Shown here in pieces: positions 11,123-13,518 of a stretch of 64,000 nt of DNA (the stretch's first letter is position 1; every line of letters begins with the position of its first letter). The DNA is taken from positions 1,731,353 through 1,795,352 of the forward strand of contig OZ242027.1 in the NCBI GenBank assembly GCA_965204865.1. Direction: 5' to 3'. This DNA is from Dehalococcoidia bacterium. Its GTDB lineage: Bacteria; Chloroflexota; Dehalococcoidia; Lucifugimonadales; UBA3495. The notes beneath the pieces are model-generated. The model saw only the letters and a program-made list of their open reading frames with translations, had not been told where the DNA came from and made no database searches. The position numbers and the translations under genes were made by a program.

Positions 11123-11803
11123 TCAGTCCGCATCCTGTATCGTTGCTATGTCGAAGGCGGTTCTTTTACCTTTCCACGATAGTTTAATCTCATCACCTGA
11201 CTGCCACACCAGTACTCCCTCAAGGTAATTCGGCCATCCGGTTTCTGCTGGCGATAAACGGAATATGCTTGCCACTAGGACCGACAGGATGATGTCGTGC
11301 GTGACAAAGACGTGGATTTGGCCATCGTTGCCCAGCGGGAATGTCACCAGATCAAGCAGAATTTCAACCCCCTCTGAGGTCGGACGCATACCGGGCAGGG
11401 GACTGGCGTCGTGAAGTTGGCGGCGGGCGATTTCAGGGACGGGAAGTGCCAGAAACAAAGGACCCGCTATTTCGGGATCGACAATGAAAGCGCCGGGATG
11501 CCCCAGACGCCGGTCTGTGATGACCTCGGCTGACGAACCGGCGCCGACAAGGATTCCACGTGTGGTCTGGACGCATCGGGGCACCGGGCTGGATACCGCG
11601 GTAATCGTTCTATTCTCCGATAGGGCTGCGCCCAAGTGTTCCGCATCCTGGAGACCCCGCGCGGTCAGGTTCATGTCGTGTCCGAAGGCGCCCATCGGAA
11701 TCTCCTCGCGCTCGGCGTGTCTGATGACCAAGGACACGTCCACGCCTTCAGGAACTGTGGCCAGGCGCTCCAGGATGGAGGCCACAGGATCGGGCGCGGT
11801 CAA
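11123..11803 (-). CDS. Histidine phosphatase superfamily protein (phosphoglycerate-mutase-like, branch 1)
   Basis: SLVIRHAEREE (RHG-type catalytic His), SSPVPRCVQT, VFVTHDIIL (second His). TTG start at 11803 overlaps the upstream stop (TTGA). Confidence 0.8.
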   Translation of the reverse strand: MTAPDPVASILERLATVPEGVDVSLVIRHAEREEIPMGAFGHDMNLTARGLQDAEHLGAALSENRTITAVSSPVPRCVQTTRGILVGAGSSAEVITDRRLGHPGAFIVDPEIAGPLFLALPVPEIARRQLHDASPLPGMRPTSEGVEILLDLVTFPLGNDGQIHVFVTHDIILSVLVASIFRLSPAETGWPNYLEGVLVWQSGDEIKLSWKGKRTAFDIATIQDAD

Positions 11804-13518
11804 ACTGCCCTGGCCCTGATGACCGAACTTACAGAACGGGTAGGGAGTACCTCGGTGAGTTCAAAGCCGGACTTGGCCAGGAGGTACCTGAACTGTTCCT
11901 CTGTGCGCTCCGCGCCCCCGGCCACAATAAGCATGTTCAGGTCCAGCAGGCCGCCGACGCCGGTCGTGCCGTCCAACACCATCTCAACCACGGAGAGTGT
12001 GCCCCCCTTCGGCATAGCTTCCCTGGCCTGGGTCAGAATGCGCACCGCGTCATCGTCCTGCCAGTCGTGCAGTACCCGGGCCAGTACCACCGCGCCGGAC
12101 CGGACCGGCCATTCGTTGAAGAGATCGCCGGGAACAAACCGGCAACGGTCCCCGATGTCGTCGGGTGCCTTGGCTAGGCCTACTACCTCCGAAAGATCCA
12201 TGACGGTGGCGGTCAGGCCGGGATGGGCACGAAGCAGGGTGAATGCCAGTTCGCCGGTGCCGCCGCCAGCGTCCAGTATGTGGTTGTGGCTTCCAAAGTC
12301 CCAGTCGGCCGCCAAGTCCTGGTAGTCGTGCCTGGCGTAGCTGGCAAAGGCCCTGTGAGAGGATTGCAGTTGCTCCGGCCTGTCCTTCAGTAGCTGGAAA
12401 AGGTTCTGGCCGTACAGCTTCCTGATGGCGGAGTTGCCGGTGCGGAGTGAGTACTCCGCCTCGGTCCAGGCCCTGTAGGTCTCGCCACCCCACAGGGAGG
12501 CGGCATCGGCCAGGGAGTGCAAGTGCGAGCGTTGTAGCAGGGCGCCCTTTTCGGTGTGGTGGTAGACGCCCTCGGCATCGGCCTGGACGAGTCCCAACTC
12601 CGTAAGGGCTCGTATCAGCCGGAGCCCCACGGAGTCCGCCAGTTCGAGCGATTCTTCGATGTCCTCTGCTGACGCCGGCAACGACTCGAACACACCCATT
12701 TCCACCGCAGCCCGTATGGCCTGGGTCCTCCACATCCCCACCATGTCGCCGGAGAGTTCCTCAAGAGGAGTGCGAAGAGACTCCCTAAGTTTGACCAGGA
12801 TCTTTCCTGACTCCCCGATGACCGACAGCGAACCGTCAAACCCTTCCACCCTGGCCTGCCCGTTGTAGAAGGGCTCCGCATTCCTGTAGCGGTCCTGGTA
12901 CAGCGGCTGTCCGTGAACATCGACGTGGTGCCAGCCCTGCTCATCCCGAGCACGGGCGAAGTTCTTGTGGAACACATCCAGATCGAGGAACCACCGCCCA
13001 TGCAACAGAGCGCCGGAGGGGCCGATGTGGCTGTGCCGCCCGTCATCGCTTTGCACAACGGCAGAGCCGTCCTTGAAATCCCCGGCATAGCGATAGCGCT
13101 CCTCATAGGCCGGGTTGCCGTCTTCCACAAGGTGAAAGTAGCGCCCGCCTGAGCCTCGCACGGTGCAGCGCCCCTCCTGGAAGTTGCCGCACCAGGCATA
13201 CCGCTCCGGGTAAAGGGGACTGCCGTCAGGCAGGACGTGGAGCCATCCGTCAATGGAATGCACCGCGGCGCGCCCCTCGTAGAACCCGAAGGTCCTGATG
13301 TAGCGGGGATCATAGGCCGGCAGACCGTCGGGGGTGACGTGGTAGGCGCCGGTGCTGTCCACCACCGGCGCCAAGCCCGGCGCGTGGAACTTCAGCACCT
13401 CCAGGAACCGCGCTTCGTAGACGGGTCTCCCGTAGCAGACGTGATGAGTGCCGTCCGCCGCTATCCTGTATTCTCGCCAGTTGCCGCTCACGCGCCTTCC
13501 GGCCTCCGCATATTGCAT
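11800..13518 (-). CDS. Fusion protein: N-terminal WG/KWG-type beta-propeller repeats + C-terminal family-2 (COMT/Methyltransf_2-like) SAM-dependent O-methyltransferase
   Basis: N-terminal ~245 aa contain 6-7 units of ~34 aa with the pattern G-[WY]-x-H-[VL]-x-x-x-G-x-P-x-Y-x-x-R-[YF] (e.g. DGWLHVLPDGSPLYPERYAWCGNFQEGRCTV). C-terminus has ILDAGGGTGELA (SAM motif I), RCRFVPGDLF and ARVLHDWQDDDAV. Start is ATG 13518, or GTG 13491 forming a GTGA overlap with the upstream stop. The ORF-track start at 13710 is read-through. Confidence 0.8.
   Translation of the reverse strand: MQYAEAGRRVSGNWREYRIAADGTHHVCYGRPVYEARFLEVLKFHAPGLAPVVDSTGAYHVTPDGLPAYDPRYIRTFGFYEGRAAVHSIDGWLHVLPDGSPLYPERYAWCGNFQEGRCTVRGSGGRYFHLVEDGNPAYEERYRYAGDFKDGSAVVQSDDGRHSHIGPSGALLHGRWFLDLDVFHKNFARARDEQGWHHVDVHGQPLYQDRYRNAEPFYNGQARVEGFDGSLSVIGESGKILVKLRESLRTPLEELSGDMVGMWRTQAIRAAVEMGVFESLPASAEDIEESLELADSVGLRLIRALTELGLVQADAEGVYHHTEKGALLQRSHLHSLADAASLWGGETYRAWTEAEYSLRTGNSAIRKLYGQNLFQLLKDRPEQLQSSHRAFASYARHDYQDLAADWDFGSHNHILDAGGGTGELAFTLLRAHPGLTATVMDLSEVVGLAKAPDDIGDRCRFVPGDLFNEWPVRSGAVVLARVLHDWQDDDAVRILTQAREAMPKGGTLSVVEMVLDGTTGVGGLLDLNMLIVAGGAERTEEQFRYLLAKSGFELTEVLPTRSVSSVIRARAV

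Follow-up and report, generated by a model that had tools for sequence, protein, structure and literature searches.

What pathway calls for a protein that joins WG-type repeats to an O-methyltransferase (OMT), and is this union peculiar to one genome? The question is raised by a minus-strand gene, here termed WG-OMT, in a 64,000-nucleotide stretch of a Dehalococcoidia bacterium (contig OZ242027.1), the whole of which is referred to as the window. A sequence-only reading of the gene had taken the fusion to be unusual. We find instead that WG-OMT is the fixed architecture of a large, widespread and uncharacterised orthologous family present in at least eight bacterial phyla, and that it belongs to a four-gene cassette whose synteny holds across these phyla. 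With a probability of roughly 55%, we propose that WG-OMT supplies the tailoring methyltransferase to a pathway, conserved and horizontally mobile, in which a nucleotide sugar is turned into a modified glycoside, and that the propeller formed by the repeats is a core module of that pathway.

Distribution of the WG-OMT architecture

A word-indexed protein search with WG-OMT returned 1900 proteins, and among the best 120 of these, query coverage was 100% or nearly so, with identities of 63 to 84%. When the N-terminal domain (N-domain) alone was used in a HMMER scan, 262 clusters (50% identity) were recovered at E ≤ 1e-30, most with lengths of 540 to 580 aa. Among one-genome-per-species contigs, 173 WG-OMT stretches were confirmed. 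Existing records already label the protein, as "WG repeat-containing protein" for Rickettsia in RefSeq and as "methyltransferase" for an Arsenophonus plasmid in GenBank. The fusion can no longer be called unusual. It is common, as the sequence-only reading had considered might prove to be the case, but its context is almost always the same cassette rather than a range of unrelated ones. Literature searches (WG repeat with OMT, radical S-adenosylmethionine [radical-SAM] enzyme or glycosyltransferase; PF14903) retrieved no paper on the WG-OMT family.

Taxonomy was assigned from the best 80 of the 173 stretches. Carriers in Chloroflexota comprise Dehalococcoidia, including a SAR202 bin, as well as other members of the phylum, and those in Myxococcota are Archangium gephyra, Myxococcus sp. 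Y35, Cystobacter, Nannocystis and Polyangium. Thiomargarita, Sedimenticola and Marinobacteraceae represent the Gammaproteobacteria; Chlamydiota, Latescibacterota, one alphaproteobacterium and Desulfopila (Desulfobacterota) also carry the gene, and the cassette is plasmid-borne in Rickettsia (pREIP; R. asiatica) and Arsenophonus. For genomic context and motif counts, 81 loci were fetched, 52 from Chloroflexi and 29 from other phyla.

Domain structure and conservation

The arrangement proposed earlier, WG-type repeats ahead of a complete OMT, held up against Pfam OMT scores, repeat autocorrelation, AlphaFold2 modeling and Foldseek searches. For the C-terminal part of the window protein, the Pfam Methyltransf_2 model (PF00891) scored 115.6 bits against a cut-off of 22.3, and the OMT dimerisation domain (PF08100) scored 33.3 bits against 25.6. 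The OMT motifs quoted in the sequence-only reading (ILDAGGGTGELA and VLHDWQDDDAV) are present, and the modeled helices of residues 242 to 400 superpose on LaPhzM. The S-adenosylmethionine (SAM) loop DAGGGTG, D432, H475-D-W and E503 are positions kept in all 81 genomic orthologues. Together, these features indicate a complete small-molecule-type OMT with SAM and catalytic motifs intact. About a quarter of 62 divergent full-length representatives, all within the P0144-P0293 alignment, carry substitutions of the SAM-loop glycines (G410R, G411S, G413L) yet retain both catalytic residues, His and Glu; these proteins may form a pseudo-methyltransferase sub-family. For the window gene the same idea was ruled out, as the motifs are intact in 81 of 81 cassette-linked orthologues.

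The N-domain comprises about seven repeats of 34 or 35 aa with the motif G-[WY]-x-H-[VIL]-x3-G-x-P-x-Y ... F-x-x-G-x-A-x-V. BLOSUM autocorrelation over residues 14 to 236 gave peaks at lags of 69, 35 and 34 (z = 16.6, taken against the over-lag maxima of 2000 shuffles), and the same procedure yielded no comparable peak in the OMT part. Against the WG profile, WG_beta_rep (PF14903), the outcome was divided: the window protein reaches 20.4 bits (E 5e-4), short of the 25.6-bit cut-off, and no single stretch of it passes, whereas its orthologues and relatives do. The N-domains of P0194, P0187, P0160, P0196 and P0163, which share 39 to 59% identity with that of the window protein, score 79.2, 42.8, 38.2, 36.8 and 36.3 bits, respectively, and about one third of close WG-OMT homologues carry a precomputed PF14903 annotation. 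The AlphaFold2 structure suggested as a check was favorable; the N-domain modeled alone is all-beta, with a predicted local distance difference test (pLDDT) of 94.5 and a predicted template-modeling score (pTM) of 0.83, and full-length WG-OMT has a pLDDT of 88. Foldseek matched the N-domain model to beta-propellers, namely BamB and designed 6- to 10-bladed "Cake" proteins, at E-values of 1e-9 to 1e-10 (probability 1.0, template-modeling [TM] score 0.45 to 0.55), and a sequence search of the PDB found no match for residues 1 to 240. From these models, we predict with high confidence that the N-domain is a six- or seven-bladed beta-propeller.

Conservation is strongest in the propeller. Across phyla, identity to the window protein is 57.9% for the N-domain, 40.2% for the OMT cap and 37.2% for the Rossmann fold, and among the 62 divergent representatives, 39 of the 44 residues conserved at ≥95% fall in the propeller. 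Residues conserved once per blade include the G-x-x-H His and, in G-x-P-x-Y, the Gly and Tyr. Others occur in a single blade yet are invariant among orthologues (H36, Y71, N103, Q105, D138, H175, K176, E206, Y209 and N210); the strand register of the model puts them on or beside the first, innermost strand of each blade, which suggests that they form one asymmetric binding pocket at the mouth of the central channel. A "ring of histidines" serving as an axial metal site was considered and rejected, as the same register places the per-blade His on the third strand rather than the innermost one; for this residue, the model makes a structural role at least as likely as a metal site. Conservation suggests that purifying selection acts on both the propeller and the OMT half.

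The 3′ end of the gene at position 11800 agrees with the sequence-only reading, which had begun the gene at an ATG at 13518 (572 aa). A GTG at 13491 gives 563 aa, exactly the length of most among the best 120 homologues; it is preceded by GGAGG and shares GTGA with the TGA stop of the upstream radical-SAM gene. We therefore consider GTG 13491 the more likely start and take the gene as 11800 to 13491. Since the next gene downstream, for the histidine phosphatase, likewise has a TTG start that falls on the WG-OMT stop (TTGA), the radical-SAM, WG-OMT and phosphatase genes are translationally coupled.

The WG-OMT cassette

Searches of the fetched loci with the window proteins (tblastn) revealed a fixed gene order: a family 4 glycosyltransferase (GT4), a radical-SAM/SPASM enzyme, WG-OMT and a histidine phosphatase (Table 1). 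GT4 adjoins WG-OMT in 51 of 52 Chloroflexi loci and 26 of 29 loci from other phyla, the radical-SAM/SPASM enzyme in 51 and 27, and the phosphatase in 48 and 25, where several of the 29 loci end at contig edges. Genes near the core are less constant: a short-chain dehydrogenase/reductase (SDR) of the epimerase/dehydratase type was found in 45/52 and 14/29 loci (a more distant SDR in the latter), UDP-glucose 6-dehydrogenase (UGDH) in 21/52 and 0/29, and prokaryotic viperin (pVip) in 8/52, all Dehalococcoidia, and 0/29. Co-occurrence with the neighboring radical-SAM, GT4 and viperin genes, which the sequence-only reading had put forward for checking, is thus nearly universal for the first two and restricted to those eight loci for viperin. 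All-against-all clustering of the open reading frames (ORFs) in these loci disclosed no further gene conserved across phyla. Cross-phyla identities are 53 to 67% for GT4, 58 to 67% for the radical-SAM enzyme and 41 to 50% for whole WG-OMT, and lower for the phosphatase (29 to 38%) and the SDR (about 28%). GT4 and the radical-SAM enzyme are thus on a par with the propeller in conservation.

Table 1. Features of the window, with positions counted from its first nucleotide
Feature	Position	Strand	Evidence or remark
ORF containing WG-OMT	11800-13710	-	ORF list
WG-OMT gene, WG-propeller/O-methyltransferase, 563 aa	11800..13491	-	GTG start, upstream stop overlapped (GTGA)
WG-type beta-propeller domain, aa 1-236 (predicted)	12784..13491	-	AlphaFold2, Foldseek, alignment, autocorrelation
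Family-2 O-methyltransferase, aa 242-563	11800..12768	-	Dimerisation/cap domain and Rossmann fold; DAGGGTG, D432, GDLF, H475-D-W, E503
GT4 glycosyltransferase, first cassette gene	14549..15913	-	Pfam, PDB search, tblastn
Radical-SAM/SPASM enzyme, CxxxCxxC = CNLHCIMC	13488..14522	-	Pfam, NCBIfam, tblastn
Histidine phosphatase, RHAE motif, TTG start overlapping WG-OMT stop	11123..11803	-	Pfam, tblastn
pVip, accessory, operon 3′ end	10185..11018	-	NCBIfam, PADLOC
SDR NDP-sugar epimerase/dehydratase, convergent neighbor of cassette	9074..10030	+	Pfam, NCBIfam, PDB search
UGDH	7742..9061	+	Pfam, NCBIfam
IS21 istA/istB	194-2292		Cassette flank
PD-(D/E)XK nuclease	3520-4848		Cassette flank
Fic protein	5903-7171		Cassette flank
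IS/transposase fragments	17200-18800		Cassette flank
Tyrosine integrase	18981-20441		Cassette flank

Fusions tie the cassette proteins to one another. GT4 and the radical-SAM enzyme form a single ORF of about 790 aa in at least 19 non-Chloroflexi loci and on Rickettsia pREIP, and the propeller itself occurs in WG-OMT-histidine phosphatase, WG-histidine phosphatase lacking the OMT, PhyH-WG-OMT (846 aa) and AAA_33-WG-OMT proteins. Such fusions to other enzymes of the same pathway fit the earlier suggestion of a propeller that brings in a substrate or a partner enzyme. In a variant cassette (L085, 3749-13678; L086, 604-10506), an SDR-GT4 fusion, the radical-SAM/SPASM enzyme and the WG-histidine phosphatase are kept and the OMT is replaced by a carbamoyltransferase; a second radical-SAM/SPASM enzyme, a UDP-sugar dehydrogenase and a nucleotidyltransferase are present in addition. 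An IMG/VR contig classed as viral (L087, 5509-8726) encodes an 828-aa GT4-radical-SAM/SPASM fusion and, after it, a free-standing WG propeller (about 240 aa) that lacks a methyltransferase, and its remaining large ORFs have no Pfam match. Separately, the L085 cassette adjoins a CfbE-like gene (coenzyme F430 synthetase C-terminal domain) and a DMRL synthase gene, neighbors that raise the possibility of an archaeal host.

On Rickettsia pREIP (L082, 5771-15583), the cassette is accompanied by a separate PhyH dioxygenase gene, two GntG-family/threonine-aldolase genes and an annotated ABC transporter ATP-binding protein. The Arsenophonus plasmid (L083) has a separate PhyH dioxygenase gene and one threonine-aldolase gene and also carries panBCE; no GT-radical-SAM gene is listed for it in the PLSDB gene table, which omits pseudogenes. 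Elsewhere, UGDH, NTP_transferase, GFO/IDH/MocA, GT2 and AsnB-type amidotransferase genes recur near cassettes. A conserved ORF of 57 aa, rich in Asn, Gln and Arg (MPKRSRDQQDNRSNQLNPNNN...AYWQARGFDRRPEDWKERAKR), was observed in the gap of about 600 nt between the phosphatase and SDR genes at seven Chloroflexota loci (L004, L010, L013, L014, L017, L027 and L048). The "aminoglycoside antibiotic" cluster of Rickettsia buchneri, suggested by plasmid matches, was rejected as an instance of the cassette, as its published genes (among others, PIG-L, KanB, HemL, IstM and IstN) differ (PMC8770908).

A proposed glycoside pathway and its alternatives

We read the cassette as building a modified glycoside because it brings together UGDH, SDRs, a GT4 and a dedicated phosphatase with OMT, carbamoyltransferase or PhyH tailoring and, on pREIP, an ABC transporter. 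The dehydrogenase passes the NCBIfam nucleotide-sugar dehydrogenase model, with UDP-glucose 6-dehydrogenase as its best match, and likely supplies UDP-glucuronate; the SDRs resemble UDP-sugar 4-epimerases, UDP-glucuronate 4-epimerase and UDP-glucuronate decarboxylases. Among solved relatives of the GT4, the best is Tll1590 (6kih), which we take to be a sucrose-phosphate synthase; PimB′, a PglA-type transferase, MshA and BshA come next, and several enzymes of this group act on small, often phosphorylated acceptors. In the pathway that we infer, including its order of reactions, the SDR and dehydrogenase would prepare a UDP-sugar, probably derived from a uronic acid, which GT4 would join to a probably phosphorylated acceptor. 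The radical-SAM enzyme would then remodel the GT4 product, the histidine phosphatase would strip the phosphate, and the OMT would methylate a hydroxyl by means of SAM and the His475/Glu503 pair. The propeller would recognize a common intermediate, dock on the GT4-radical-SAM enzyme, or both, with the OMT, phosphatase and PhyH dioxygenase tethered to it as tailoring enzymes. Conservation and fusions suggest that the propeller is a core pathway module rather than an accessory of the OMT, and the proposed recognition or docking role would explain why tailoring enzymes are tethered to it and why it outlasts loss of the OMT.

Several points weigh against this proposal. No cassette protein reaches an NCBIfam equivalog threshold. 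The similarity of GT4 to Tll1590 and MshA covers the donor-binding half only, at 25 to 53 bits, which leaves the phosphorylated small-molecule acceptor conjectural. The role given to the propeller is drawn from conservation and fusions, and its putative central pocket from the secondary-structure register of a model. Methylation, moreover, may not be universal in the wider family, given the SAM-loop substitutions described above.

Other products would account for parts of the same evidence. The cassette might modify a cell-surface glycan (O-antigen, capsule or lipopolysaccharide [LPS] core), with the propeller as a lectin-like holder of the polysaccharide and the OMT and phosphatase trimming it. 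Polysaccharide loci typically carry GT4 enzymes; UGDH, SDR and RmlD-type genes lie near the cassette in the window; the phosphatase weakly matches the LPS heptose-phosphate phosphatase PmrG; and cassettes are flanked by GT2, hexapeptide acyltransferase and AsnB-type amidotransferase genes in Chlamydiota and by a GFO/IDH/MocA oxidoreductase gene in Latescibacterota. We nevertheless consider a surface glycan unlikely, since no flippase, polymerase or lipid-carrier enzyme is found among the conserved cassette neighbors, solved family-2 OMTs with a dimerisation cap act on small aromatic or natural-product substrates, and the compact cassette moves onto endosymbiont plasmids together with an ABC-transporter gene and pyridoxal phosphate (PLP)-dependent aldolases. 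A peptide or protein maturase role for the radical-SAM/SPASM enzyme, whether in a pathway resembling those of peptides that are made on ribosomes and modified after translation (RiPPs) or with the propeller itself being modified and glycosylated, strikes us as very improbable. In favor of it, the best NCBIfam matches of the enzyme are SPASM peptide and metalloenzyme maturases (at 50 to 77 bits, far under the cut-offs), PqqE is its sole PDB match, and the propeller co-evolves tightly with GT4 and the radical-SAM enzyme. No ORF of 15 to 69 aa within 700 nt of the cassette ends is conserved across phyla, which led us to reject a RiPP precursor, and no peptidase or RiPP recognition element (RRE) domain occurs among the conserved neighbors. 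It would also be odd for a substrate protein to be fused to the very enzymes that tailor it, and the surroundings consist of sugar-nucleotide genes.

That the product stems from a nucleoside, whether as a high-carbon nucleoside like tunicamycin or by way of 3′-deoxy-3′,4′-didehydro-nucleoside triphosphate (ddhNTP), the product of viperin, is in our view decidedly unlikely; here, the phosphatase would free the nucleoside for the radical-SAM enzyme to remodel, by C-C bond formation or otherwise, and glycosylation would fall to GT4 and capping to the OMT. The PhyH dioxygenase and threonine-aldolase-family PLP enzymes beside the cassette on the Rickettsia and Arsenophonus plasmids speak for such a product, and their pairing recalls the LipL/LipK logic of uridine-derived antibiotics. 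So do the pVip gene inside or at the end of the operon in eight Dehalococcoidia loci, in at least two arrangements and with divergence parallel to that of the cassette, and the kinase-like AAA_33 domain fused in one relative. The SDR (about 320 aa), radical-SAM enzyme (about 340 aa), glycosyltransferase (about 455 aa) and phosphatase (about 200 to 225 aa) match the classes and sizes of TunA, TunB, TunD and TunG (PMC6965331; PMC6105854). Against this, TunA (3vps) ranks sixth (94.6 versus 116.3 bits) and tenth (60.3 versus 86 bits) among solved relatives of the two SDR types, outscored by UDP-sugar 4-epimerases and UDP-glucuronate decarboxylases; no TunC-, TunE- or TunH-like gene (acyltransferase, deacetylase, pyrophosphatase) is present among the conserved neighbors; and pVip is missing from 44 of the 52 Dehalococcoidia loci, the window's two closest relatives among them, and occurs in no other phylum. 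The tunicamycin analogy is therefore kept at low probability. A bolder form, which we think improbable, holds that the cassette makes a new class of modified nucleoside-glycoside and that its substrate in viperin-bearing Dehalococcoidia is the viperin product (a 3′-deoxy-3′,4′-didehydro nucleotide). This nucleotide would be dephosphorylated, glycosylated, radically remodeled and O-methylated to a stable, possibly exported antiviral or antibiotic, with the propeller as a new kind of substrate-holding subunit. Finally, the chance that the fusion arose from misassembly or faulty gene calling, or by an accident in one lineage and without functional meaning, is negligible: an uninterrupted ORF of 563 aa was present in 81/81 fetched loci from many independent assemblies and phyla, and homologue lengths, multi-phylum loci and tblastn synteny exclude it. 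Nothing was found in its support, although entries of 920 aa (radical-SAM plus WG-OMT, P0029) could be frameshift read-throughs.

The viperin gene

The pVip assignment is firm, with 286 bits against a cut-off of 180 for NCBIfam NF038283 and an E-value of 1e-82 for the PADLOC pVip model. Beyond the window, the gene is co-located with the cassette in L003, L005-L008, L016, L035 and L039, always in operon orientation; it follows the phosphatase gene or, in L035, lies between WG-OMT and the phosphatase. It is missing from L001 and L002, the nearest relatives of the window. Identities of 57 to 80% for pVip and 61 to 79% for the cassette show that its divergence tracks that of the cassette, which suggests long co-inheritance with repeated loss, a lead towards a functional link and not a proof of one. 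pVip is dispensable for the cassette, and WG-OMT is not an obligatory viperin partner.

The cassette was also considered as a defence system and rejected, since PADLOC recognizes pVip only and nothing among the five other proteins. The GT4-conflict Pfam match, at 38.9 bits, looks like generic GT4 similarity.

Genomic setting and significance

In the window, the cassette sits in a mobile, defence-island-like stretch, flanked by the insertion sequence, nuclease, Fic and integrase genes of Table 1, and this setting agrees with the patchy, plasmid-borne distribution of the cassette. Farther along, positions 20557 to 25625 hold genes for a BBE-type FAD oxidase, a class-V aminotransferase/cysteine-desulfurase-like protein, a peptidase C1-like protein (bleomycin-hydrolase type) and an RmlD-type reductase.

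WG repeats are one of the large bacterial repeat families with no assigned function. Here, one WG sub-family is linked to a single, strongly conserved enzyme set through synteny and several independent fusions, and is the best-conserved component of that set. This would give the repeats a definite function open to test, that of recognition or docking in a sugar-modifying pathway built on GT4 and a radical-SAM enzyme. Because the compact cassette of four or five genes has spread to at least eight phyla, culturable myxobacteria among them, and to Rickettsia and Arsenophonus plasmids, its product is likely to be ecologically important. The viperin gene that is occasionally inserted in the operon offers a lead to the downstream processing of viperin products, for which we know of no prokaryotic description. 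What is new is an uncharacterised, widely transferred sugar-tailoring cassette with a WG propeller as core component.

Comparison with known systems

Residues 242 to 562 of WG-OMT align end to end with the solved family-2 OMTs LaPhzM (6c5b), CalO6 (4z2y), MmcR (3gwz), DtpM (8rdm) and DnrK (1tw2). LaPhzM matched at a phmmer E-value of 1e-48 and, in Foldseek, at a target-normalised TM score of 0.91 with 32% identity, and WG-OMT has in common with these enzymes the DxGGGxG SAM loop and the catalytic pair of His and Glu. Unlike WG-OMT, they have no N-terminal propeller, and their substrates are aromatic natural products, whereas the context of WG-OMT is sugar-nucleotide metabolism.

The pairing of a GT4, nearest to Tll1590 and then to MshA and BshA, with a dedicated phosphatase is shared with SPS/SPP, MshA/MshA2 and GpgS/GpgP, in which a glycoside-phosphate synthase is followed by a phosphatase. 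Those pathways have no radical-SAM enzyme, propeller or OMT, and the glycosyltransferase matches are weak and confined to the donor-binding domain. In the PDB sequence search, the phosphatase found no match, and the radical-SAM enzyme found PqqE only, at an E-value of 0.002. Compared by class and size only, the tunicamycin set likewise contains an SDR, a radical-SAM enzyme, a glycosyltransferase of about 455 aa and a histidine phosphatase of about 200 aa. One tunicamycin producer has a methyltransferase as well, TunM (PMC6105854; PMC6965331). The cassette differs in having no acyltransferase, deacetylase, pyrophosphatase or acyl carrier protein and in that TunA is not the nearest relative of its SDRs, and TunM, at 216 aa and with no propeller, is unlike WG-OMT. 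In the PADLOC categories, known pVips are stand-alone or kinase-associated, whereas the pVip described here is co-oriented with a biosynthetic operon.

With PF14903 proteins, the N-domain shares a repeat of about 35 aa (F-x-x-G-x-A-x-V ... G-W-x-x-[IV]-x3-G-x-x-x-x-P-x-Y) and the propeller-like fold predicted here; WG repeats had no solved structure at the time of a 2021 survey, and none surfaced in the present analysis. Relative to the canonical repeat, by our own reading of its motif, the Gly of "WG" is absent from the WG-OMT domain, and the residue after it is a His that is invariant in each blade (H17, H51, H85, H120, H155 and H189). PF14903 repeats form a variable array elsewhere, whereas in WG-OMT they constitute a fixed unit of about 236 aa that is bound to one pathway.

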